43,786 nucleotides of DNA, taken from contig CAZDJS010000002.1 in assembly GCA_964505795.1 (NCBI GenBank), positions 1-43,786 on the forward strand, given 5' to 3'. Made by a program: the position numbers and the translations under genes. The DNA comes from an uncultured Methanosarcinales archaeon. Lineage in GTDB: Archaea > Nanobdellota > Nanobdellia > Woesearchaeales > UBA525. Positions 897-43,786 of this stretch are shown piece by piece. Under the pieces are notes generated by a model. That model worked only from the letters and a program-made list of their open reading frames with translations. It searched no databases and was not told the origin of the DNA. Position 1 is the first letter of the stretch, and each line of letters opens with the position of its first letter.

Positions 897-1384
897 CCGC
901 GCACCTCCAATTCACCAAGCACATAAATATTTTCTCGAGGATCATAAATAACCACAGGAATAAATTGTGTCAAATAATTTTCTGAGTTCAGTCCGTCAAA
1001 AAGAACTGTTTCTGTGTTTGAATTTGGATAGAGTTCTCGAAGAATAATATCTCTATTTCCAAAAAGATCGGCATATTGAAGTCGTATCCTCTCATCATAA
1101 TTTGGATTGCTAATATTTGTTAACCATTCTCCAAGTATTTCTGCTTTAAGCAAATCAATGCAAACGCTGTTTTCTCTTCCTGCTTGCGAGCAAGAAAGCT
1201 CTTCTATATTACTCAATCGAACTCCAAGTGCAAGTATTTCTTGTGAGATTTCTTGACGCGTATTTTGTTCATTGCTCTCTTCACTTCCCACTACAAAAAT
1301 GAAAAGTCCAAGAAGTACTAATAATATAAGAACTATTGCTACAATTATTGTTTCTAATGCCTGGAGTTGTGCTCGTTTCATCAT
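893..1384 (-). CDS. Type IV pilin-like protein with class III signal peptide (163 aa)
   Basis: The N-terminus is MMKRA|QLQALETIIVAIVLILLVLLGLFIFVV, and the rest is a soluble domain. Confidence 0.6.
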   Translation of the reverse strand: MMKRAQLQALETIIVAIVLILLVLLGLFIFVVGSEESNEQNTRQEISQEILALGVRLSNIEELSCSQAGRENSVCIDLLKAEILGEWLTNISNPNYDERIRLQYADLFGNRDIILRELYPNSNTETVLFDGLNSENYLTQFIPVVIYDPRENIYVLGELEVRG

Positions 1385-1545: not shown

Positions 1546-2434
1546 ATATTGTTGGGCAACTGTTTGCCAAGAGTATGCTGTTTGCCCTGTTGAGTCTTTG
1601 AGTAATTGAATTAATTTCATTTATTTGAGTAAGACTTGTTGTTTCTAATTCTGTAAGTGCGTTTCGAGCATCATTGTATGCGCGCTCACAATTCTCATTT
1701 TGAGTTCCTAATAATTGATTTATTCGTTCTTTGTTAAAATTTGCAAGAAAGTGCATTTTTTGTTCTGCAACACCAAGTCCGCATTCGTAACGCTCTTTTG
1801 TTGTGCTCACAATTGCGGCGAGTAAGAGTTCTTTATTCACGTAAGTGCTTTCATCATCTGAATAAATTATTCTTCCTTGCTCTGCATTATCAGGGATTTT
1901 GATTACTATTCTCCCACCTATTTGTGATGGATCAGGCTCTTGGTCTGTGACAAAAATTGCATCTTGCGGACTGTCAGATATGTCATTAACTGTTTCACCA
2001 CCAATGAATTCTCGTACATTAACATCTACTGTGTTTTGCACATATAATGGCTTATTATTTGGCATCATATAGGTTATTGCTGTTATTGGCATGCCGATGT
2101 AGAGTTCTTCTGAACGTATTGTTGTAAGACCATCGAGTAAAGGCGGCGAGAAGAGCATGTGCTCAGGAATATTTCGTATTTGTCCTGACAATTGAACAGC
2201 ATAAGAGTTTTCACATGTTGTTTGTAAATTTGAAAAGCTTGTTCTCACAATGCTCCCAAGAGATCCTTTTGCGTTTTCTATTGTTCGCATCACTTGTTGA
2301 AAAGATTGCGTTTCTTGTCGTTCTTCTCCAGTGTCTGTAAGGTTTCTTGCTATTGCAATGAATAATAGTAAAAAGAACGTTCCTGCAACTGCTACAAGTA
2401 TCCAATTGAATGAAAATTGTATTTGTCCTCTCAT
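1544..2434 (-). CDS. Type IV pilin-like protein with class III signal peptide (296 aa)
   Basis: The N-terminus is MRG|QIQFSFNWILVAVAGTFFLLLFIAI. It has a 4-nt overlap with the upstream gene (2431-2434). Confidence 0.6.
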   Translation of the reverse strand: MRGQIQFSFNWILVAVAGTFFLLLFIAIARNLTDTGEERQETQSFQQVMRTIENAKGSLGSIVRTSFSNLQTTCENSYAVQLSGQIRNIPEHMLFSPPLLDGLTTIRSEELYIGMPITAITYMMPNNKPLYVQNTVDVNVREFIGGETVNDISDSPQDAIFVTDQEPDPSQIGGRIVIKIPDNAEQGRIIYSDDESTYVNKELLLAAIVSTTKERYECGLGVAEQKMHFLANFNKERINQLLGTQNENCERAYNDARNALTELETTSLTQINEINSITQRLNRANSILLANSCPTI

Positions 2435-17004: not shown

Positions 17005-17565
17005 ATGAGTGAAGTTAAACTAAGACCAGAAGATAAAAGCATTCGCGTAGTAAATATTGTTGTTAGTACTAGTTTGGAACATGATATTCCACTCGAAAAA
17101 ATGGCAGCAGTTCTTCCAAACACAGAATATAATCCTGAGCAATTTCCCGGACTTGTTATTCGTATTAAGGACCCGAAAACAAGCGCACTCGTTTTTAGCA
17201 GTGGAAAAGTCGTCTGTACAGGGGCAAAAAGCCTTGATAAAGTCGATGAAAGTATTGCACAAATCATTGAAAACCTTAAGAAAATCAATGTTAATATCAC
17301 CGTCAAACCAATAATTACTGTACAAAACATTGTTGCAAGCGGTCAAATCGGAATGGATTTGAACCTCAACAAACTTGCTATGAAGCTGGATAATACAGAA
17401 TACGAGCCAGAACAATTCCCAGGACTCGTCTACAAGCTCATGGAAGCAAAAGCAACGTTTCTCTTATTTAGTAACGGAAAAATTGTTTGTACAGGAACAA
17501 AGAGCGAAGCTGCAGTACACGCGGCAGTAGACAAACTCATCGAAGTTCTCAAGAACGTCGACTAA
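17005..17565 (+). CDS. tbp: TATA-box binding protein
   Basis: It has two direct repeats with EQFPGLVIRIKDPKTSALVFSSGKVVCTGAKS and EQFPGLVYKLMEAKATFLLFSNGKIVCTGTKS. A TATA-like tttataaaag sits about 40 nt upstream. Confidence 0.95.
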   Translation: MSEVKLRPEDKSIRVVNIVVSTSLEHDIPLEKMAAVLPNTEYNPEQFPGLVIRIKDPKTSALVFSSGKVVCTGAKSLDKVDESIAQIIENLKKINVNITVKPIITVQNIVASGQIGMDLNLNKLAMKLDNTEYEPEQFPGLVYKLMEAKATFLLFSNGKIVCTGTKSEAAVHAAVDKLIEVLKNVD

Positions 17566-17990: not shown

Positions 17991-18065
17991 TCTCCACTCG
18001 AAACCTAGGAGGTCTACTGGACACAGACGCGAATTCAATATAAAGGAAGTAGTTCTCCAAGTAGT

Positions 18066-20093
18066 ATGGCCGAGCTCGAACTTGCTGATCAAATACAAAA
18101 ATTCAAAGAATTCTTTGAAGAATTTTATCTCGACCAACTGCTCGAAAGGCTCCGAAAAGGAGAATTGTGGCTCACGGTTCCATTCTCGGATCTTGCAATC
18201 TTTAGTCCTGAACTTGCAAACTCCGTTCTTGAAAGCCCTGAAGATAGCGTAAAAGCAGCTCAGATGAGCCTGCAAAACATTGACTTGCAAGGCGATGTTA
18301 AGGGTTTTGAAATCCGTTTTAGCACTTTACCAGCAAGCCAACACTTGATGCTTCGTGAAGTTCGTGCGAGTCATATCGGAAGATTTTTACAAATCGAAGG
18401 AGTAGTACGACAAAAAAGCGATGTTCGTCCTCAAGTGACCAGTGCTCGTTTTGAGTGTCCGAGCTGTGGAAACATCATTCCTGTGTTACAGCTTGATCAA
18501 AAATTTCGTGAACCTAGTCGTTGTGGCTGTGGACGAAAAGGAAAGTTTCGTTTACTCAGTAAACAACTTGTTGACGCACAAAATCTTGTTCTTGAGGAAG
18601 CTCCTGAAGACTTGGAAGGTGGTGAGCAACCAAAAAGAATGAATGTCATCTTACAAAAAGACCTTGTAAGTCCTATGAGTGATAAAAAAACCAATCCTGG
18701 AAGCAAGATTGTCGTTACAGGGGTTGTTAAAGAAGTTCCTATCACTCTTGCAACAGGTGGTCAAAGCACCAGATTCGACTTGATGATTGATGCTAATTTT
18801 GTTGATGCCCTTCAAGAAGACTTTACACAAATCAAAATTTCTTCGAAGGAGGAAGAAGAGATTCTTACCTTTGCAAAGAGCGAAAATCCTTTTCAATCCC
18901 TTGTCACAAGCCTTGCTCCTACTGTGTACGGACACGATAAAATCAAAGAAGCGCTCATTTTGCAATTGCTTGGTGGCTGTCGAAAGTCAGAAAACGAAGG
19001 AGCGAATAGTCGTGGAGACATTCATATTTTACTTATTGGTGATCCTGGTTCTGGAAAAAGTACTTTGCTCAAACGGGTAACGAATGTTGCTCCAAAATCT
19101 CGTTTTGTTTCAGGAAAAGGAGCGAGTGGTGCGGGACTTACTGCTAGTGTGGTGAAAGATGAGTTTTTGCGTGGTTGGGCTCTTGAAGCAGGTGCTCTTG
19201 TACTTGCAAATCGTGGTATTTGTTGTATTGACGAGCTTGATAAGATGTCTGATGATGATAGGAGTGCGATGCACGAAGCGCTCGAGCAACAAACAGTCAC
19301 TATTAGTAAAGCAAACATTCAAGCAACATTGCGATCTGAAACCACTGTTCTTGCTGCCGCAAACCCGAAGTTCGGTCGTTTCGATCCTTATGAACTCATT
19401 GCAAAACAAATTGATTTGCCAAGCACTTTGATTAATCGTTTCGATCTAATTTTTGCTGTTCGTGATATGCCTGACACTGAAAATGATGGAAGACTTGCAG
19501 ACTTTATTTTGAAGCTTCATCAGAACGAAAAAGCTGAAACGACTGAGTTAAGTAAGGATTTCGTTCGTAAATTTATTTCCTATGCAAAAACAAGAGTTCG
19601 CCCTGCACTCACAGATGAAGCCTTAACTGAGATTCGTAATTATTATGTCAAGATGCGTGGTTCTGGTGGTGATGATGCTATTAAGGCCATTCCTATTAGT
19701 GCTCGGCAACTTGAAGCGCTGGTTCGTCTTGCAGAGGCTTCTGCAAAAACTCGCCTTTCAAAAATTGTTTCTCGTGATGATGCACAAGTAAGTATTGATT
19801 TGGTTCATTATTGTTTGAGTCAAATCGGGCTTGATCCTGAAACAGGAATCATGGATATTGATCGTATCACTTCGGGAGTTACTGCAAAGCAAAGAAGTCA
19901 CATACACCTTGTGAAAGATATTATTAACGAGCTTGTTGATAGCTTTGGCGATAAACCAATTCCTATTGAAGATTTAATTCGTGAGTGTGAAATTAAAGGC
20001 GTTTCTGAGAAAAATGTTGAAGAGACGCTTGAAAAACTTAAACGCTCTGGTGATTTGTATAGTCCGAAGCAAGGATTTATTAGTAAGATTTGA
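18066..20093 (+). CDS. mcm: MCM replicative helicase
   Basis: It has a Zn finger CPSCGN...CGCG, Walker A IGDPGSGKST, Walker B CCIDELDKM, the arginine-finger region SARQLEALVRLAEA and a C-terminal winged-helix-like tail. Confidence 0.95.
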   Translation: MAELELADQIQKFKEFFEEFYLDQLLERLRKGELWLTVPFSDLAIFSPELANSVLESPEDSVKAAQMSLQNIDLQGDVKGFEIRFSTLPASQHLMLREVRASHIGRFLQIEGVVRQKSDVRPQVTSARFECPSCGNIIPVLQLDQKFREPSRCGCGRKGKFRLLSKQLVDAQNLVLEEAPEDLEGGEQPKRMNVILQKDLVSPMSDKKTNPGSKIVVTGVVKEVPITLATGGQSTRFDLMIDANFVDALQEDFTQIKISSKEEEEILTFAKSENPFQSLVTSLAPTVYGHDKIKEALILQLLGGCRKSENEGANSRGDIHILLIGDPGSGKSTLLKRVTNVAPKSRFVSGKGASGAGLTASVVKDEFLRGWALEAGALVLANRGICCIDELDKMSDDDRSAMHEALEQQTVTISKANIQATLRSETTVLAAANPKFGRFDPYELIAKQIDLPSTLINRFDLIFAVRDMPDTENDGRLADFILKLHQNEKAETTELSKDFVRKFISYAKTRVRPALTDEALTEIRNYYVKMRGSGGDDAIKAIPISARQLEALVRLAEASAKTRLSKIVSRDDAQVSIDLVHYCLSQIGLDPETGIMDIDRITSGVTAKQRSHIHLVKDIINELVDSFGDKPIPIEDLIRECEIKGVSEKNVEETLEKLKRSGDLYSPKQGFISKI

Positions 20094-22348: not shown

Positions 22349-25300
22349 TTACATAAAACTCCCTAAGCCTTCTTGTCGTTCTGCATCTTTACCGAAGTTT
22401 CCTTCTACACGTCGCTTTGTAAGCTCGAGGTCTTGTTGCAAGTATGCTGAAACATTGAATTCTTTTGCTATGCGCAAGCTCGGTTCTAAGTATTTGATAA
22501 CACTTCCTTCTGAAATAGTAAAAATTATTTTTCCATTGCACGTTTTACAATTTCCTTTGAGTGGTGGCCTGCGGTATTTTGCGTTGCATTTTACGCAGCG
22601 AAACTGTTGTCGCGAAAATTTTCCTAAGTTTCCTTTTGTGTCTCGAATAAAATGTTTTGTGATAATAAGTGTGGCAACATCACTCTCATCAACCGCAACT
22701 ATTTTTCTTGCAAGAGCGAGTTGCGAGTCCATTTTTTCTTCCATGCTCGGTAGTGTTTTGTACGAGCTACATAAGACTCCGTCGTTGATGTTTGTAAAAT
22801 CGTGTGTGAAACCCATCCCTTCAAACTGTGCTGGTGTGCCAAGGTCTTCTTCAAGACGTTTAATTTGTATTTCCCAAGGTTTCTTATATTGCTCACACGC
22901 TTCATAAAACTCGAGCGGATAGCTCCATACAGTATCAACATTAAAAGCCATATCGTCAACTTCTGCCGGATTCAACCAATAGGTTAATACTAATGGTGCG
23001 TCCATTGTTCCTCCTCGTGATTCTGGCAAGTATTTTTGACTAAAGTTCAAGAAGGCATCCATGAGAAGAAGAAAACAACTCTCATCACCGTCACAATCTC
23101 GTCGCATCGCTGCGTGAAAAAGTGGATGTGCGAGAAAACCTTGTGTTTTGCTAAATCCTATGATTCGTCCGACTATTCCTGCTGAGGTGTGTGGTGCGAG
23201 CCCAATGATATAATGGCCGACAAGATCTTGTTTTGATTCGAGATTATAATATTCTTTCAATCCATAAAACTTTGTGAGTAATTCATCAACGAATTTTGTT
23301 GTGTGAAAAAGAACATCGTCACAAGCCTCATCAGGATAGCCTGGCGTTTCACAACAAGGTAAGACAACATCTTGCGGAAACAATTCAAGAACTTGATTCT
23401 CGTCCTCAAGTTCTTTTCCGTAGCAATCTTTATCATATCCTAATTCTTTAAGTCTGTGAACACTCACTCCAACTTCAACAGGTTTAAAATGAGTGAGTGT
23501 GACTTCACTCGCGTCATAGCGTACAGTTCCATCTTTGTTCACGTGAACGTTGTGTTTTGCTCTGAGTATTCCTTTTGCTATGTGTTCAGGAATGTGACTT
23601 TTGTTGCTGGTTCCTCGCACTCCTTTAATAAGGTCAGGATAGGTTTTTATTCCTAATCGTTTAATAGTTTCATGAAAAATTCTTTTTATGGGAACATCCC
23701 AAATTTCGTAATCTGTTTCTGTGGTTTCTCCTTTGTAGTTTGTCATTTGGGTTTTTACTTTGTCTGTTTTTTCATCGCAAACTTCGCAACGAAAGAACGG
23801 AGTGAGTATATCGCATTTTTTGCAATGGTTTTTTGGAAAAGAAGCGTTCACGTATCCTTCTTCGAGCGCTGCTTGAAAACATCTGAGTCTCCCTCCTTGT
23901 TCTCCAACAGGAAAAAGTGTGTGTGGACTCCCTGTCATTTTTCTCATCTTTGCTTTTTCAGGACGTCCCATCCTGCTTCCGATAAATATCCCTGACTTAT
24001 CTCTTATCTTGAGTGTTGAGAATTCTTGTATTGTTTCGAGCGTGTTTTTTTGCGAGTCAGGGATTGTTTTTGTTGTCCCAAACATTGTTTTTATGATGAG
24101 CTTCCATTCCTCGCTCAGAAGTATTTCTTTCTTGTCGTTAACAGTGTATGGTATGCCAAAACGATCAAAGTCTTCATCTGAATCAATATTTTTTGTGTTG
24201 TTCGTTGCGAGGATGAGTTTTTGTAAGGATGTGACAGTCCCTTCTTTCCAAAACGGAGTCCATTTCGGGTGTAATGGTGTGTTTGTTTCTTGTGCTATTG
24301 TTATTGCTTCTTGTGCTGAGGGTTTTATTGTTAATGGGTTGTCGATGAACTTTTGAACATCGATACTTGTTGTTGCTCCATCGTCAATTGCTTTTTTGAG
24401 TTCTTGCACCCACCATTCTTCACAATACCCTGCAGGAATAAGTGTGTGTGCCCTGTCAAAGAAGTCGCCGTAGTTTACAAGAACATCCCCAAAATAATGA
24501 ATTTTTTCTATTTTGTTTGCTATTTCTCTTGCTTGTTTTTCAGTTTCTACTTGTACAAGAGAGCCGTCTTTGAGTTTGACTATTGGTCCTTCTATTGTGT
24601 CGCAAGGTGTAAATGCTGCTGCTTTTCCTGGTCGTTCTACTTTAAGTTGTGTTCCTGTTGCGATAAAACCATCACTCACCACCATTGTCGCTGGGTGTAT
24701 TGCTTGTCCACTGTAGCCTGATGCTCTGCTTCTTCCGTACCTGAGTCTGAATGCTCCTGGTCTGAGCGGATGACCAAAGACCGGCCTTCCCGCGACTATA
24801 TCTTTGATGTAGGTGTAGTCAGGACTTATCTTTGCTCCGTCTTCTTCGCCTCCTTTTGCTTTCATTTTCTTTTGTAAGTTCAAGAAGTCTTCAAGAAAGT
24901 TCCAGTCTTGCATTTCCATCTCATCCCCCCATTCACTCAGGCGCTTCCAGAGTTTTGGTCCTTTGAGTGGAATACAACTACTATGAATAAGACAATACCC
25001 ACTTCTCAAGTTGTTTGTTTCGACTCGTGGGAGGTCTTTGAGGTTAACATTACTTACTTCCCATTTTTCGCTCGGGTCTCCTGCTATTTCTACTGGGATG
25101 TTTTCCATGAGGAATTTGCTTTCTTCTTCGCTCGGAAAGTATTGGAGGTTTGCAACGAAGCGATGGTAGTCTTCAAGTTCTGCTGCGCAACGTAATGCTT
25201 CTTTTTCTGTCGGGTCATACTTTGCAAAACCCATTTTTTTTCGTACATAATCTGCAATAAGAACACTCACTGACGCTGCTGTTCCTCCTGCGTTTCTAAT

Positions 25301-25765
25301 CGGTCCTGCATAATTTATTCTGAAGAATTGTCCTTTCTTGTCGCGTCTCTCTTTAATTTCGATGCTGGTCAGTCCTTCTATCGGACTACTCACTACTCCA
25401 AGCGTTACGTAAGCGAATCCGACACGAACTCCTACTTCAATTGCTTCGAGTGCTGTTTTGAAGCCACAATATTTTTGTTCTGCTATTTCGTGTGCAATAA
25501 CCATTCCTACTCGCCAATCAAGAATAGAGTATTGTTCTTCGAGCTCAATGATTCTCTCGGCAACTCCGCTTCCTTTGATTTGTGGTGCTATTACTGAAAT
25601 GAGCCCTTCTACTCTTTCAGCAAGTGTTTCAGCAAGTGTGATTTCAACATCAGTATGAGGGTCATATCCTTTTTTTCTTGCTTCTTGTGCTTGTTTAAGC
25701 GCTGTGAAGCAGTCTTCTTTGAAGGTGTTGAAATATTTGTTAATTTTTGGACTGCAGACTATCAT
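22349..25765 (-). CDS. DNA polymerase D (Pol II) large subunit DP2
   Basis: It is 1138 aa with the characteristic Zn motif CVKCNAKYRRPPLKGNCKTCNGKIIFTISEGSVIKYL. It has a 4-nt overlap with the DP1 gene. No intein-like insertion is evident. Confidence 0.9.
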   Translation of the reverse strand: MIVCSPKINKYFNTFKEDCFTALKQAQEARKKGYDPHTDVEITLAETLAERVEGLISVIAPQIKGSGVAERIIELEEQYSILDWRVGMVIAHEIAEQKYCGFKTALEAIEVGVRVGFAYVTLGVVSSPIEGLTSIEIKERRDKKGQFFRINYAGPIRNAGGTAASVSVLIADYVRKKMGFAKYDPTEKEALRCAAELEDYHRFVANLQYFPSEEESKFLMENIPVEIAGDPSEKWEVSNVNLKDLPRVETNNLRSGYCLIHSSCIPLKGPKLWKRLSEWGDEMEMQDWNFLEDFLNLQKKMKAKGGEEDGAKISPDYTYIKDIVAGRPVFGHPLRPGAFRLRYGRSRASGYSGQAIHPATMVVSDGFIATGTQLKVERPGKAAAFTPCDTIEGPIVKLKDGSLVQVETEKQAREIANKIEKIHYFGDVLVNYGDFFDRAHTLIPAGYCEEWWVQELKKAIDDGATTSIDVQKFIDNPLTIKPSAQEAITIAQETNTPLHPKWTPFWKEGTVTSLQKLILATNNTKNIDSDEDFDRFGIPYTVNDKKEILLSEEWKLIIKTMFGTTKTIPDSQKNTLETIQEFSTLKIRDKSGIFIGSRMGRPEKAKMRKMTGSPHTLFPVGEQGGRLRCFQAALEEGYVNASFPKNHCKKCDILTPFFRCEVCDEKTDKVKTQMTNYKGETTETDYEIWDVPIKRIFHETIKRLGIKTYPDLIKGVRGTSNKSHIPEHIAKGILRAKHNVHVNKDGTVRYDASEVTLTHFKPVEVGVSVHRLKELGYDKDCYGKELEDENQVLELFPQDVVLPCCETPGYPDEACDDVLFHTTKFVDELLTKFYGLKEYYNLESKQDLVGHYIIGLAPHTSAGIVGRIIGFSKTQGFLAHPLFHAAMRRDCDGDESCFLLLMDAFLNFSQKYLPESRGGTMDAPLVLTYWLNPAEVDDMAFNVDTVWSYPLEFYEACEQYKKPWEIQIKRLEEDLGTPAQFEGMGFTHDFTNINDGVLCSSYKTLPSMEEKMDSQLALARKIVAVDESDVATLIITKHFIRDTKGNLGKFSRQQFRCVKCNAKYRRPPLKGNCKTCNGKIIFTISEGSVIKYLEPSLRIAKEFNVSAYLQQDLELTKRRVEGNFGKDAERQEGLGSFM

Positions 25766-27180
25766 TGTTCACCTAAATAAAAATTCATCATCGTCATTTG
25801 TCGTGTTTGTAAATTAATTATTGGGAGTCGTGCTGGTTCTGGTTCGAGTCCTCTTTTGAGTTGGTCTTCTGTGATTCCTGTCCATGCTCCTGCGTTAACC
25901 ATAGTGATGTTACGATAATTTCCGTAGCTAACCGCGTGGATGTGTCCTGTGAAATAAAAGTCAGGTATTTTGTCAATAACAAGTGGGTCTTCTTCATCGT
26001 CAGGAATATATCTGTTGCTTCCATGTGTTACTGCAAGGTGTCTTCTTTGGAGTTGGAATTTCATTATTCTATCTACTTTTTTGAGTCCTCCTGCATTTCT
26101 AATTGCAGGAATATTGTCTGCATAGTAAGGAAGACTGTAGCCGTGATATATGAGAATATCAAACCCGGAAAAGGTGTTTTTTTTCCCTATATTAACAAGC
26201 GATGGACTACTCACAAGCGTCATGTTTGGTATTTCGTAGACTGCTTTTGCGAAGTCTTCATAGAGTCTTCCTTGTGGTTCAGCGATTCTTCCTGCATCGT
26301 GATTTCCTGGACAAGCAACTATTTCTATGTGCTCAGGTAATAGTTTGATTAATTTTGCAAATTCTTCGTATTGTTCAGTCACGTCAGAAATTGAAAGGTC
26401 GTTTTCTTGTCCTGGGTAGACACCCGCTCCTTCGATAAGGTCTCCTACAACAACTGCATACTTAACTTTTCTTGCGATGTTTTTTTGTTTTTCATCTCCT
26501 ACTTCTCCTCTGAGCCAAGAAGCCATGTTTTTCCATTCTTCATACAAAAAATGTTTGTTTCCTACTTGAGGATCTCCAATAACTATCATATATTCTTCGT
26601 CTTTTTGTTTCTTGAGTTCTTTACCAATAGGAATATCTGGATGTATTATTTTGTCTGCAAAAACTGTTCCTTCTTTTGCTGACCCTGTTATTCCTATAAC
26701 TTCGTCGAGAACTAAATTTTTTGCTTGCTCAAGAAGTTTTGCGTCTCTTCCTGTAATTATTATTGTTGCTGTTGCTGTTCTGTCTTCGAGTTTGAGAATA
26801 ATATTGCCATTTTTTGTAAGATTTTTTTCTTCCACCATTCCTATGAGTGCGACGTTTCCGTTTTGAAGTCGGGCTATACTTGTTACTCCTTGAAGTTCTT
26901 GTCGTGCTCGTAACATTTTTGCGAGTGCTTCGAAGCGGTGTCGCCAATACTTGACAAAATGATCATAGGTTCGTTTTTTTGGTTTTTTGTCGTAGGATTG
27001 TATGATGTGAATATTGTTAGTTTTTTCAACGAAAGCCTTGTTTTGCTTTGTTTGGAATTGTTCGAGAATGTGTTCTGGAATCTCTTCTTCTGTTTCTTCT
27101 CCGTTTTGTAATTTATTAAGAAGTTCTGGCGTGACAAGAACGCCTGCGCTCATTAGTTCGCTTACTATTTTTTGCTCCAT
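25762..27180 (-). CDS. DNA polymerase D small subunit DP1 (calcineurin-like phosphoesterase/exonuclease)
   Basis: The motifs are IGDPQVGNKHF, VVGDLIEGAGVYPGQ, CPGNHDA and GHIH. The N-terminal OB region is IGMVEEK.... Confidence 0.9.
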   Translation of the reverse strand: MEQKIVSELMSAGVLVTPELLNKLQNGEETEEEIPEHILEQFQTKQNKAFVEKTNNIHIIQSYDKKPKKRTYDHFVKYWRHRFEALAKMLRARQELQGVTSIARLQNGNVALIGMVEEKNLTKNGNIILKLEDRTATATIIITGRDAKLLEQAKNLVLDEVIGITGSAKEGTVFADKIIHPDIPIGKELKKQKDEEYMIVIGDPQVGNKHFLYEEWKNMASWLRGEVGDEKQKNIARKVKYAVVVGDLIEGAGVYPGQENDLSISDVTEQYEEFAKLIKLLPEHIEIVACPGNHDAGRIAEPQGRLYEDFAKAVYEIPNMTLVSSPSLVNIGKKNTFSGFDILIYHGYSLPYYADNIPAIRNAGGLKKVDRIMKFQLQRRHLAVTHGSNRYIPDDEEDPLVIDKIPDFYFTGHIHAVSYGNYRNITMVNAGAWTGITEDQLKRGLEPEPARLPIINLQTRQMTMMNFYLGEQ

Positions 27181-27206: not shown

Positions 27207-28406
27207 TTATATGCCGAGCTCGGTTGTGAGTATGTTTTTAATTTCTGGTATAATATTTTCTGGTAATGAAAGTGATATTTCTCTTGTTCTTCCAAAGCGT
27301 CCTTTGCTGATGACTTTCGCGTTGATGAGTCCTTGCATGTCAAGGTCTGCAATAATATCTGAAACTCGTCGTTGCGTTAATGGTCTGAGCGAGCTTGCAT
27401 TGCACACTTTCCAATACGTATCATAAATGTCTCCTGTGTTTGTTTCTTTTTCGTGATTCATGACGCTGTAGAGTGTTGCTTGATATTGTTTTGGTTGTGT
27501 TTTTACAACATCAATAAATCGTTCGTACTCAATTTTTTCTTCTGCTCTATCAATATGTTTTATCGAGATGACTTTATTTTGTTCTCTCTCGGCAAGTTCT
27601 CCTGCTACGCGTAAAAGTTCGAGTGCTCTTCTTGCATCTCCGTGTTCTCTTGCTGCATAAGCAGCGCATTTTTGTATTGTTCCTTCTTCAAGCACTCCTT
27701 TTTCAAAAGCTTTTTCTGCTCGTTCTCTGAGTATTTCTTGGAGTTGTGGTGCGTTGTAGGGTGGAAAAATAAGCTCTTCTTCTGAAAGGCTGCTTTTTAC
27801 ACGCGGATCAAGATTATTTGCAAAGCCTAAGTCATTACTTATTCCTATGATGCTCACTTGTGCGTTTTTGAGTTCTGTGTTAATTCTTGTAAGATTATAG
27901 ATGAGTTCGTCTCCTGTTTTTCTGATAAGATGATCTATTTCGTCAAGAACAAAAACGACGAGTTGTTTTTCCTCGTCTATTGTGTCAAAGAGTATTTTAT
28001 AGACTTCGTCTGTTGGTAAGCCTGTTACTGGTATTGCTTTGTTAAAGAATCGTGCGAGTGCCGCTATTAATCGGTATTCTGTGTCTGCGACTTTTTTGAG
28101 CTTGCAATTGAGATAGAATATTTTTATTGGGATGTTTTGTTTTTGAGATACTTTCACTATTTGTTCGCTGATTGCTTTTACAGTTGCTGTTTTTCCTGTT
28201 CCTGTTTTTCCGTAGACAAAGAGGTTGCTTGGTCTTTCGAGGCGTAGTGATGGTGCGAGTATGCTTGATATTTGGTTTATTTGTTCGTCTCTGTGTAGTA
28301 TTTTTGATGGTATGTAATTGCATTGAAGTACTTGTTTGTTAAGAAAGAGATTTTCGCTATCTAGGTATTGTTCGAAGTATTGTGCTATGTTATTTGTTTG
28401 ATCCAT
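27207..28406 (-). CDS. cdc6: Orc1/Cdc6 replication initiator
   Basis: It has Walker A YGKTGTGKTA, Walker B VFVLDEIDHL, sensor regions and a C-terminal winged helix (...RRVSDIIADLDMQGLINAKV). Confidence 0.95.
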   Translation of the reverse strand: MDQTNNIAQYFEQYLDSENLFLNKQVLQCNYIPSKILHRDEQINQISSILAPSLRLERPSNLFVYGKTGTGKTATVKAISEQIVKVSQKQNIPIKIFYLNCKLKKVADTEYRLIAALARFFNKAIPVTGLPTDEVYKILFDTIDEEKQLVVFVLDEIDHLIRKTGDELIYNLTRINTELKNAQVSIIGISNDLGFANNLDPRVKSSLSEEELIFPPYNAPQLQEILRERAEKAFEKGVLEEGTIQKCAAYAAREHGDARRALELLRVAGELAEREQNKVISIKHIDRAEEKIEYERFIDVVKTQPKQYQATLYSVMNHEKETNTGDIYDTYWKVCNASSLRPLTQRRVSDIIADLDMQGLINAKVISKGRFGRTREISLSLPENIIPEIKNILTTELGI

Positions 28407-28630
28407 TTCCGCCCCCTAAAGTCCATGAGAAGCAAGGGTTATATAAACGTTTTTCTTGTTTGGTTTCACACATCAAAATATCTGTTTTCGAGTCTATGAG
28501 AAAATAATTCATAGTTGGGCTGTTTTTTCTTCAAATAGTAATATTTTGTTGTTTGAGCCTTTGTGCTTTGGTTTTCTCTGTATTTTGAATCAGAAATTTT
28601 GTGTTGTTTCTGTTTGTATTTGTGGTGCCA

Positions 28631-28652
28631 CACTCCTTTGTTTCGTGTGGAG
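28631..28652 (-). promoter_or_regulatory. ORB-like box (inverted orientation)
   Basis: The reverse complement ctccacacgaaacaaaggagtg matches ttccacacgaaatcaaggaggt at 29263-29284 in 17 of 22 positions. It contains the TCCA-N-GAAA core typical of archaeal origin recognition boxes. Confidence 0.55.
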
Positions 28653-28777
28653 ATTATTGAGAGAAATTTTTTTGTTCTCGGATTTTTTGTGGTTTTTCTA
28701 ATATTTGTTACTGTTTCATCTTTATAGTGTGTATCACAAAGTATCTAATTCCAAATTAAGATTATTTAGTCCTTGCT

Positions 28778-28794
28778 TTCCACTTGAAATTTCC
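28778..28794 (+). promoter_or_regulatory. Mini-ORB-like box
   Basis: ttccacttgaaatttcc shares ttccac..gaaat with the box at 29263. Confidence 0.4.
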
Positions 28795-28834
28795 TTCTTG
28801 TCTTTTTTTCATATATAATATAATAAATTTCTAT

Positions 28835-28948
28835 ATAGTAATATAATAATATAGTAATAATAATATGTTAATATAGTAATATAATAATATAGTAATAATA
28901 ATATGTTAATATAATAATATAATAATATAGTAATAATAATATGTTAAT
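28835..28948. repeat. Three tandem 38-bp A/T-rich repeats (candidate DNA unwinding element)
   Basis: The unit is atagtaatataataatatagtaataataatatgttaat. It occurs at 28835-28872, 28873-28910 and 28911-28948 (one substitution), followed by a degenerate partial copy. Confidence 0.85.
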
Positions 28949-29183
28949 ATAATAATATAGTAATATGATAAAAAAAAATAATATGATAAAAAACAGCGCC
29001 TCTAAACGAAATCAGAAAAAACGAATGAAAAAACAGAATTGAAAATGTAGGATGAAACAAAATCAAAAATCAAGATCTGAAAAATAATGAATAAATAATC
29101 AATAAATAATATGAATAATAATATGAATAAAATTCAAAATAAAATATTAAGATCTGAAAAAATCTAAATAAAAAATTCAAAAT

Positions 29184-29260
29184 AACCCAAAACTAACCCA
29201 AAACTAACCCAAAACTAACCCAAAACTAGCCCAAAACTAAATCAAAAATAAACCAAAACC
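29184..29260. repeat. 11-bp tandem repeat array aacccaaaact (4 exact + 1 near-exact + 2 degenerate copies)
   Basis: The exact units begin at 29184, 29195, 29206 and 29217. After them come agcccaaaact, aaatcaaaaat and aaaccaaaacc. The period is about one helical turn, and the array abuts the ORB-like box. Confidence 0.85.
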
Positions 29261-29261
29261 A

Positions 29262-29285
29262 CTTCCACACGAAATCAAGGAGGTG
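29262..29285 (+). promoter_or_regulatory. ORB-like box (direct orientation)
   Basis: cttccacacgaaatcaaggaggtg is the inverted partner of 28631-28652. Confidence 0.55.
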
Positions 29286-29420
29286 CTGTCAAAAAAATTC
29301 TCGAGCAAATAAATCACATTCAAGCACAGAAACTCACGAAAAAAGAAAAACAAATTGTAATCACTCAACAATGATAAAAAAAGAAAGCTTTATATATTCT
29401 CAGTCATTTCTCCTTATACA

Positions 29421-30224
29421 ATGATTATCGGAGAAGAATTCCTCAAAGAACTTAAAGAGTTTGGTCTTAACAGCTATGAAGCAAAGATTTGGGCCGCATT
29501 ACTGAGCCGCGGCGTAAGTACAGCTGGCGAGCTCTCTGACATCGCAAACGTTCCTCGGAGCAGATCCTATGATATTCTTGAAAGCCTTGAAAAAAAAGGA
29601 TTTATTATTATGAAGATTGGAAAACCAATCAAATATCTCGCAGTTTCTCCAGAAGAAGTTGTGGATAGAGTGAAAAAAAATGTTCTTGATGATGCAGACA
29701 ACAAAATTGCAGCATTAAAAAAACTCGAAGACAGCGATGTTCTCTCAGAATTGAACCTTTTACACAATAAAGGAGTTGATCTTGTTGATCCAAGCGATAT
29801 TACTGGTGCTGTTAAAGGTCAAGATAATATTCACGACCAACTCAGTCTCATGCTCAAAACCGCAGAAGAAAATCTTATTATTGTTACGACAGAAACAGGT
29901 ATAGTTCGCAAATTTACTATTCTTGAGCGTGGCTTTAAGAAAGCAGCCGAGCGTGGAGTTACTATTGAAGTTGCAGCACCAATCACGGACAAAAACAAAG
30001 AAATTGTTGAAAAGATCCGAGAATACGCGACAGTAAAGGATTTGCAACATATTAATTCACGATTTTGCATTGCAGACGGTAAAGAAATATTATTCATGCT
30101 CATGGATGACAATGAAGTGCACCCAATGTATGATGTTGGTGTTTGGATTAACACACCATTCTTTGCAGCAGCACTCACACAACTCTTCCAAATGGTATGG
30201 AAAGAATTGAAAGTGAAAGCATAA
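29421..30224 (+). CDS. TrmB-family transcriptional regulator
   Basis: The N-terminal wHTH is LKEFGLNSYEAKIWAALLSRGVSTAGELSDIANVPRSRSYDILESLEKKGFI, followed by a C-terminal effector-like domain. Confidence 0.85.
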   Translation: MIIGEEFLKELKEFGLNSYEAKIWAALLSRGVSTAGELSDIANVPRSRSYDILESLEKKGFIIMKIGKPIKYLAVSPEEVVDRVKKNVLDDADNKIAALKKLEDSDVLSELNLLHNKGVDLVDPSDITGAVKGQDNIHDQLSLMLKTAEENLIIVTTETGIVRKFTILERGFKKAAERGVTIEVAAPITDKNKEIVEKIREYATVKDLQHINSRFCIADGKEILFMLMDDNEVHPMYDVGVWINTPFFAAALTQLFQMVWKELKVKA

Positions 30225-43193: not shown

Positions 43194-43278
43194 CTAAAAT
43201 ATGTGGAGCTAATTTTTTCCAAAAACATTATTTATTTTCTATATTGTATTAAACCATTTTTTTCTTTTCTTTTTTACT

Positions 43279-43734: not shown

Positions 43735-43786
43735 GCGCCCGTAGCTCAACCGGATAGAGCAGCGGACTTCTAATCCGCAGGTTGCA
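43735..43786 (+). tRNA. tRNA-Arg (anticodon TCT), 5' portion; 3' end beyond window
   Basis: The arms are acceptor GCGCCCG, TA, D-arm GCTC-AACCGGATA-GAGC, and anticodon arm GCGGA-CTTCTAA-TCCGC with TCT at 43769-43771. The variable loop and T-arm start are cut by the window edge. Confidence 0.85.

Follow-up and report, generated by a model that had tools for sequence, protein, structure and literature searches.

Activity of the Sulfolobus origin oriC1 requires inverted origin recognition boxes (ORBs) that flank a duplex-unwinding element (DUE), and the unit ORB3–DUE–ORB2 measures 130 bp (PMC12141716). Inverted ORBs are predicted to make the bound initiators face each other, with MCM being loaded between them (PMC6742236). 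Sulfolobales also carry ucm, an 11-bp site with more than 300 genomic copies to which an abundant protein, UBP, binds (PMC12141716). The gene order oriC–cdc6–DP1–DP2 is known from Pyrococcus and several other euryarchaeal orders (PMC2643942). Cdc6 of P. furiosus binds ORB1 and ORB2 oligonucleotides in vitro (ORB1 reverse complement: TTCCAGTGGAAATGAAACTCTGGGGGG), and the ORB of Aeropyrum pernix has 22 bp (PMC1904270). For the DPANN archaea, 208 complete Nanobdellota genomes have been rotated to ORC1/Cdc6 as a stand-in for the origin (preprint 10.64898/2026.05.13.725050). Our literature search returned no ORB analysis of DPANN origins. To our knowledge, no DPANN replication origin has been mapped so far. 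Here, we analyse a gap at positions 28407-29420 of a 43,786-nucleotide stretch of contig CAZDJS010000002.1 (the window), which lies directly upstream of an orc1/cdc6 initiator gene.

Judged from its sequence, this gap is very probably an oriC of the widespread Orc1-1/oriC1 type, the origin from which the chromosome of a Woesearchaeota (DPANN) archaeon is replicated. It is for the most part an ordinary feature, because the same layout was found beside cdc6 in more than 80 related genomes. Its elements are as follows.

28407-29420: candidate oriC gap between the leftward orc1/cdc6 and a rightward TrmB-family gene
27207-28406, minus strand: orc1/cdc6 initiator gene, 399 aa, assigned by Pfam, NCBIfam and its PDB relatives
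28422-28447, plus strand: promoter-proximal ORB fused to the cdc6 TATA box, TCCATGAGAAGCAAGG-GTTATATAAA
28631-28652, minus strand: proximal full ORB, CTCCACACGAAACAAAGGAGTG; TCCA end toward the A/T block, G-run toward cdc6
28768-28794: inner mini-ORB with a dyad core, TTCCACTTGAAA on the plus and TCAAGTGGAAAGCAAGG on the minus strand
28795-28995: predicted A/T-rich DUE, 93% A+T
28828-28841: central palindrome, TTTCTATATAGTAA, at the cdc6-side edge of the A/T block; one mismatch from TTTCTATATAGAAA
28833-28966: 38-bp tandem repeat, 3.5 copies, inside the A/T block; Tandem Repeats Finder (TRF) score 247
29000-29015, plus strand: weak ORB-like box, CTCTAAACGAAATCAG, with a TCTA core, no G-run and two mismatches to the box pattern
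29178-29259, plus strand: 11-bp tandem repeat, CAAAACTAACC, 7.5 copies, abutting the distal ORB on its A/T-block side
29263-29284, plus strand: distal full ORB, TTCCACACGAAATCAAGGAGGT; TCCA end toward the A/T block, G-run toward the TrmBL2-like gene

Boxes, A/T-rich block and initiator

An earlier note on this DNA had proposed a replication origin around two inverted 22-nt boxes about 610 bp apart, and both their coordinates and their strings proved right. The reverse complement of 28631-28652 (ctccacacgaaacaaaggagtg) is identical to 29263-29284 (ttccacacgaaatcaaggaggt) at 17 of 22 positions, with 610 nt between the inverted boxes, and a repeat search of the gap returned the same pair (19 nt, 89% complementary). 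Allowing up to three mismatches, the 19-nt box consensus matched the window three times, whereas 0.04 matches were expected and none of 100 shuffles reached three; the pair is therefore not a chance product of low-complexity DNA. The string TCCACNNGAAA was likewise found five times in the window against an expectation of 0.56. The sequence TCCACTCGAAA at 17088 lies inside the TBP gene and was taken as chance. Both full boxes are located away from the promoters, at 225 and 137 nt from the nearest start codons.

The smaller elements named in the earlier note are present as well, with some refinement. The short related box at 28778 (ttccacttgaaatttcc) turned out to be dyad-symmetric and gives a fuller ORB on the minus strand (TCAAGTGGAAAGCAAGG) that departs from the full pattern at one position, while the weak box at about 29000 (ctctaaacgaaatcag) carries TCTA in place of TCCA and lacks the G-run. 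The stretch described as almost pure A/T over some 190 bp corresponds to 28805-28995, which is 93% A+T (A 104, T 73, G 11, C 3). According to nearest-neighbour parameters, 28794-28993 is the least stable 200-bp duplex of the whole window (z = 6.5), and this low stability fits a DUE. The tract of 11-bp repeats next to the distal box is A/C-rich, with A-runs recurring at about the helical period. At the other end of the gap, the promoter ORB sits between the cdc6 TATA box (GTTATATAAA on the plus strand, TTTATATAAC on the cdc6 strand) and the start codon (28406). No Rfam family was found in the gap, even at E ≤ 1, and its open reading frames (ORFs) are low-complexity artefacts only. Hidden RNA or protein genes were rejected on these grounds, and no gene-based alternative is apparent.

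The adjacent ORF, which the earlier note had taken for the initiator gene, does encode Orc1/Cdc6. It shows the Pfam domains Cdc6_lid and Cdc6_C at about 1e-24, in addition to AAA, and scores 518 bits against the NCBIfam ORC1-type equivalog (cutoff 501). Its best PDB relatives are Orc1-1 of S. solfataricus (2QBY_A, E = 8e-103) and ORC1 of A. pernix (2V1U, E = 1.6e-95), the two initiators crystallised on origin (ORB) DNA. Binding of Orc1-1 to ORBs is weakened by mutations in the initiator-specific motif (ISM; G120/L121), the helix-turn-helix (R341) and the wing (R365) (PMC3089459). The corresponding residues of the window protein are G129/L130, R346 and R370, matched with an offset of 11 that fits all three sites, and they are invariant in a 19-sequence Woesearchaeota alignment. 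The initiator is thus classed as Orc1-1 type, with the DNA-contact residues of the ISM and the winged helix kept.

Conservation and gene context

In order to compare the gap with its counterparts, we used 80 loci with relatives of the window Cdc6 from species-representative genomes, to which four contigs of nearer relatives were added (L081-L084, with Cdc6 proteins 95, 81, 75 and 76% identical), giving 84 loci in total. The box pattern was TCCA-N3-GAAA-N4-GG and the upstream zone comprised the 1.2 kb before cdc6. The 84 loci contained 132 full boxes in 80 kb of cdc6-upstream DNA and seven in the remaining 565 kb, so that the box density differs 133-fold. The comparison with cdc6-adjacent DNA of relatives that the earlier note had put forward is therefore in favour of conserved boxes. 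A count matrix seeded only on TCCA-N3-GAAA yielded the consensus TTCCAyArGAAAyAAAGG(G/T)GT, in which the G-run, although outside the search seed, is among the most informative positions and stands at a fixed spacing.

The layout is conserved along with the boxes. In the relatives, the proximal box shares the strand of cdc6 and has a median position of -90 relative to this gene, and the distal box is found on the opposite strand, 200-1000 nt upstream of cdc6 (L083 and L084 included), so that the two inverted boxes point their TCCA ends at each other, as they do in the window. The spacer between the ORBs has a median length of 293 bp (range 94-919 bp) and 18% GC. A TrmB-like divergent neighbour, as in the window, is present beside cdc6 in 16 of 57 related loci (about 30% of lineages). 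Boxes on both strands were retained in 39 of the 40 loci with another kind of divergent neighbour, indicating that the boxes track cdc6 and not the neighbouring gene.

Alignment with the nearest relative, L081, revealed that most of the gap has diverged with many indels and that five islands are conserved: the 41-nt cdc6 TATA and box, the proximal ORB with about 25 nt of flank, an A/T-block core of about 55 nt with the palindrome, the mini-ORB core, and a stretch just upstream of the promoter. The mini-ORB core is kept there as TTCAAATGGAAA (TTCAArTGGAAA core). For the weak box at 29000-29015, the L081 alignment showed no clear homologue, and its status as an ORB is uncertain. The promoter box with its TATA element is identical at 41 of 41 nt amid diverged DNA. 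More broadly, 41 of 85 loci have a core box in minus orientation no more than 90 nt away from the cdc6 start, and in 31 of them a TATA-like element comes directly after it. The consensus of this fusion reads TCCAnAAGAAAyAnAGGTTTATAAA (TCCAnAAGAAAyAnAGG-TTTATAAA).

The repeats behave differently from these islands. L081 lacks the 38-bp array, and its A/T core is only about 55 bp long; the array therefore represents a recent enlargement of this core. Among the relatives, tandem repeats that are unrelated in sequence account for 9.4% of cdc6-upstream DNA versus 0.7% elsewhere. The 38-bp repeat was accordingly rejected as a conserved element and is regarded as a fast-evolving, lineage-specific expansion, as it is absent from L081 and unrelated repeats are common in the origins of relatives. 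A/C-rich tracts on the A/T-block side of the ORBs are visible in the upstream sequences of relatives, and several relatives show A/C-rich TRF consensus units; the regular 11-bp form was not found among the relatives examined. Strand-composition asymmetry across the origin was also discarded as a general trait: it is strong in the window and close relatives and weak in 35 distant loci (p = 0.005-0.02).

Contigs in this collection end within 400 nt upstream of cdc6 in 17 of 80 cases (L002, L004, L007, L009, L011, L013, L018, L020, L022, L029, L031, L038, L051, L052 and others), whereas none ends within 400 nt downstream (p = 1.5e-5). Evidently, short-read assemblies break in these repeat-rich, A/T-rich origins. 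As a separate observation, the distant loci L076 (~1730-1751, minus strand) and L078 (~1245-1266, minus strand) have in common, at 2.2-2.7 kb upstream of cdc6, an ORB-like box and its conserved flank (GGGGTTCCAACAGACA); in L076, this box falls within an ORF and beside a GTCT repeat.

Besides the ORBs, the gap contains the central palindrome. Its core CTATATAG was found in 16 of 85 cdc6-upstream regions, compared to 0-5 for twelve comparable palindromic 8-mers, and the flanks extend it to the 14-bp palindrome TTTCwATATwGAAA. With at most one mismatch, the palindrome is present in 21 of 68 loci (composition-matched palindromic controls: 0.3 ± 0.7, maximum 3), and with at most two in 39 of 68 (controls: 4.8 ± 3.2). 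At the stricter threshold, all 22 matches fell within the 81 kb of cdc6-upstream DNA, and the remaining 607 kb had none. Twenty of these 22 matches are situated between a distal and a proximal ORB, for example in L003, L005, L006, L015, L016, L026, L039, L048 and L063. The compact origins L039, L048 and L063 hold it exactly in the centre, 46-56 nt from each ORB. In the window, the mini-ORB is 48 nt away from the centre of the palindrome, and the same three compact origins show a spacing of 46-50 nt. Our literature search found no paper that mentions the palindrome. An association with the TrmB-like neighbour was dismissed as weak (p = 0.02 at up to two mismatches, p = 0.13 at up to one) and confounded by phylogeny.

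The 11-mer TTTCTATATAG occurs five times in the window (21867, 28828, 30245, 32323 and 43183), always intergenic and on the plus strand, with a variant at 43235 (plus strand); in about 0.92 Mb of related loci outside the cdc6-upstream regions it is found at only two places. In three of the non-origin copies, 50-54 nt lie between the CTATATAG core and a start codon, and this interval contains a separate TATA-like box. The palindrome shares its TTTC/GAAA half-sites with the ORB core, with a spacer of 6 nt compared to 4 nt in the ORB, and it is possible that Orc1 itself binds it. The units of the A/T tandem repeat (ATATAGTAATA...) resemble its right half. A bolder idea, which we consider rather doubtful, is that the palindrome might recruit a second origin factor, a dimer different from the Orc1 monomers on the ORBs, and so form a DPANN counterpart of ucm/UBP; the TrmBL2-like protein could be the binder, and the A/T repeats could be slippage copies of the half-site. 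Such a factor might also act at promoters in this genome, because four further, partial copies of the palindrome (TTTCTATATAG) are found in other intergenic regions.

The surroundings of the gap comprise the following genes and features.

29388-29397: TATA box of the TrmBL2-like gene
29421-30224, plus strand: TrmBL2-like winged helix-turn-helix gene, 267 aa, divergent from cdc6; Pfam TrmB, PDB 5BOX
25762-27180, minus strand: PolD DP1, on the same strand as cdc6 and downstream of it
22349-25765, minus strand: PolD DP2, on the same strand as cdc6, after DP1
18066-20093: MCM, further left of DP2
17991-18013, plus strand: ORB-like box TCCACTCGAAACCTAGGAGGT (box 17993-18013), 53 nt upstream of the MCM start
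17005-17565: TBP, also left of DP2

The window thus shows the order oriC–orc1/cdc6–PolD DP1–DP2, and the contig encodes the core genes TBP, MCM, eIF-2 beta and Hef. The closest public Cdc6 proteins come from metagenome-assembled genomes of Woesearchaeota / Nanobdellota (DPANN). For the divergent neighbour, a PDB search gave the chromatin-associated TrmBL2 (5BOX) as the best full-length likeness (E = 1.7e-18), and the score of the neighbour is far below the NCBIfam equivalog cutoff. We regard this gene as a neighbour of the origin, its participation in origin function being putative. At the right end of the window, the 5' part of a tRNA gene (43735-43786, plus strand; Rfam RF00005, 34 bits) is cut by the contig end.

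The box upstream of MCM is the third full-length match in the window, and a TATA-like element follows it after about 25 nt. Of 80 related MCM loci, L129 alone (1072-1092) has such a box, in the same place and the same orientation, and relaxed scans of the related MCM loci gave no enrichment (0.195 vs 0.138 per kb). It is for these reasons not lineage-wide, and a conserved Orc1 site at this place was rejected. The box may be either a lineage-specific Orc1 input to MCM expression or a product of chance.

Proposed mode of action and competing explanations

Taken together, the sequence features point to the following course of events. Orc1/Cdc6 monomers would bind the full ORBs at 28631-28652 (minus strand) and 29263-29284 (plus strand), the winged-helix domain contacting the TTCCA..GAAA core and the AAA+ ISM the G-run, and they would probably bind the inner mini-ORB, too. 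Since the inverted boxes have their TCCA ends on the inner side, initiators bound to them are expected to face each other across the 93% A+T block. Two MCM hexamers would then be loaded between them, the duplex would open there, and the origin would fire in vivo. The winged helix contacts the dyad on the TCCA side of an ORB and the ISM the G-run side. If these contacts hold here, the inward TCCA ends match the model of facing initiators. The ORB fused to the cdc6 TATA box (28422-28447) would allow Orc1 to repress its own gene; negative autoregulation is probably the simplest reading of this site. The palindrome at 28828-28841 would be an additional conserved origin element, bound either by Orc1 or by a dimeric factor.

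Several observations weigh against an active origin at this site. Cumulative GC skew rises through the locus with no extremum, a measure that cannot decide the matter because the 43.8-kb window is too short, and AT skew flips at the locus but follows the gene strand. The G-run of both full boxes is GGAG in place of the usual GGGG or GGTG, with A at that position in only 14 of 152 related boxes, and the full ORBs are 612 bp apart, about twice the median of the relatives and toward the upper end of their range. Furthermore, Thermococcus kodakarensis keeps a conserved oriC and Cdc6, both of which are dispensable for replication (PMC5663688), so that conservation of an origin is no proof of its use. 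This last example, together with the missing skew signal within the window, is what speaks for a locus that is an origin by descent but little used or unused, replication being started by recombination or in another origin-independent way. We consider such a case very unlikely. ORC1/Cdc6 is reported to belong to the single-copy core of complete Nanobdellota genomes (preprint 10.64898/2026.05.13.725050). In addition, lineages whose Cdc6 proteins are just 55-66% identical show strong conservation of the ORBs, of their orientation and of the palindrome, which speaks for ongoing selection.

A regulatory spacer without a replication start, whose boxes are nothing but transcriptional operators of the divergent cdc6 and TrmBL2-like promoters, appears very unlikely, even though part of the evidence is compatible with it. 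An ORB–TATA fusion at the cdc6 promoter is present in the window as well as in 31 related loci, and at least this box is therefore most simply seen as an operator. An isolated ORB-like box precedes MCM, and Orc1 paralogues are known as transcription regulators (Orc1-2 in Sulfolobus, PMC9738581). However, the full boxes lie off the promoters and are inverted around the least stable DNA, the same geometry and the central palindrome recur in relatives whatever the neighbouring gene, and proven origins have both this motif and this initiator type. It is hardly conceivable that the likeness of the boxes is due to strand-asymmetric low-complexity DNA (T/G-rich on the left, A/C-rich on the right). 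The gap does contain 30 inverted pairs, mostly weak matches of 70-80% that stem from its mirror-image composition, but the shuffles, the G-run of the consensus at its fixed place and the enrichment in the 84 loci already refute this explanation. Archaeal cdc6–origin pairs were sometimes derived from extrachromosomal elements (review PMC4010727), and the gap could in principle have come in with an integrated plasmid or virus, as its replicator–initiator module. This carries next to no probability here, given that the Cdc6 is a Woesearchaeota-wide orthologue in conserved synteny with PolD DP1 and DP2, that core genes are found on the contig and that neither an integrase nor a tRNA-flanked boundary appeared close to the locus. 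At the sequence level, the ORBs and the Orc1 type thus support the replication origin that the earlier note had suggested, and a chromosomal oriC is the best reading of it.

Comparison with described origins

Current understanding is not overturned by these results. Origins of the Orc1-1/oriC1 type are already well known, and the modest interest of this one lies in the lineage-wide model, the ORB–TATA fusion and the palindrome. For Woesearchaeota, the results provide an origin model that specifies an ORB consensus, the polarity of the boxes and a minimal unit of some 100-130 bp, and in addition a predicted autoregulatory Orc1 site at the cdc6 promoter and a previously unremarked central palindrome. 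They also offer an explanation of why short-read assemblies often break just upstream of cdc6.

The arrangement recalls bacterial oriC–dnaA, where the initiator gene likewise stands beside the origin and an initiator box overlies its own promoter (analogy in PMC4010727). Initiator and boxes are unrelated, however, and here one monomer per box is predicted and the helicase is MCM. The oriC1 ORB of Aeropyrum pernix has a similar box length, and its ORC1 (2V1U) is the second-best structural relative of the window initiator. As a lead, the A. pernix ORB may also have the spacing TCCA-N3-GAAA-N4-GGGG.

Pyrococcus and other Thermococcales share the gene order oriC–cdc6–DP1–DP2 with the window, and both have full ORBs mixed with mini-ORBs and two A/T-rich parts. 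The earlier note had likened the TCCAC..GAAA core to archaeal ORBs, and rightly so: the TTCCA-N3-GAAAT core of the distal box TTCCACACGAAATCAAGGAGGT is identical to that of the P. furiosus ORB1 and ORB2 oligonucleotides. In Pyrococcus, the G-run follows 9 nt after GAAA, compared to 4 nt in the window, and the Woesearchaeota box can therefore be described as a compact ORB. A second ORB cluster in dp1, as in Thermococcales, was not found, there being no TCCA-N3-GAAA match in 25762-27180. A Thermococcales-type origin (34-bp ORB, ORB cluster in dp1) was rejected on the basis of the 4-nt spacing and the lack of dp1 boxes. The window organism, at 38% GC, is in contrast to Thermococcales probably mesophilic.

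The window also resembles oriC1 of Sulfolobus and Saccharolobus (ORB3–DUE with ucm–ORB2, Orc1-1), which has the same adjacent initiator gene and the same inverted ORBs around a DUE, and whose Orc1-1 (2QBY_A) is the protein most similar to the window initiator. Like ucm, the palindrome is a short conserved motif in the DUE between ORBs, a likeness of position; it stands midway between the ORBs in L039, L048 and L063, compact relatives with about 95-106 bp from one ORB to the other. Differences concern the Woesearchaeota ORB, which is compact (~21-26 bp), the full ORBs of the window, which are 612 bp apart around a DUE expanded by tandem repeats, and the 14-bp palindrome, which in relatives is almost confined to cdc6-upstream DNA, unlike ucm with its many genomic copies. 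Overall, the oriC1/Orc1-1 replicator–initiator pair appears to reach into DPANN with little change, which is in line with the view that this pair is ancestral in archaea (PMC4010727).

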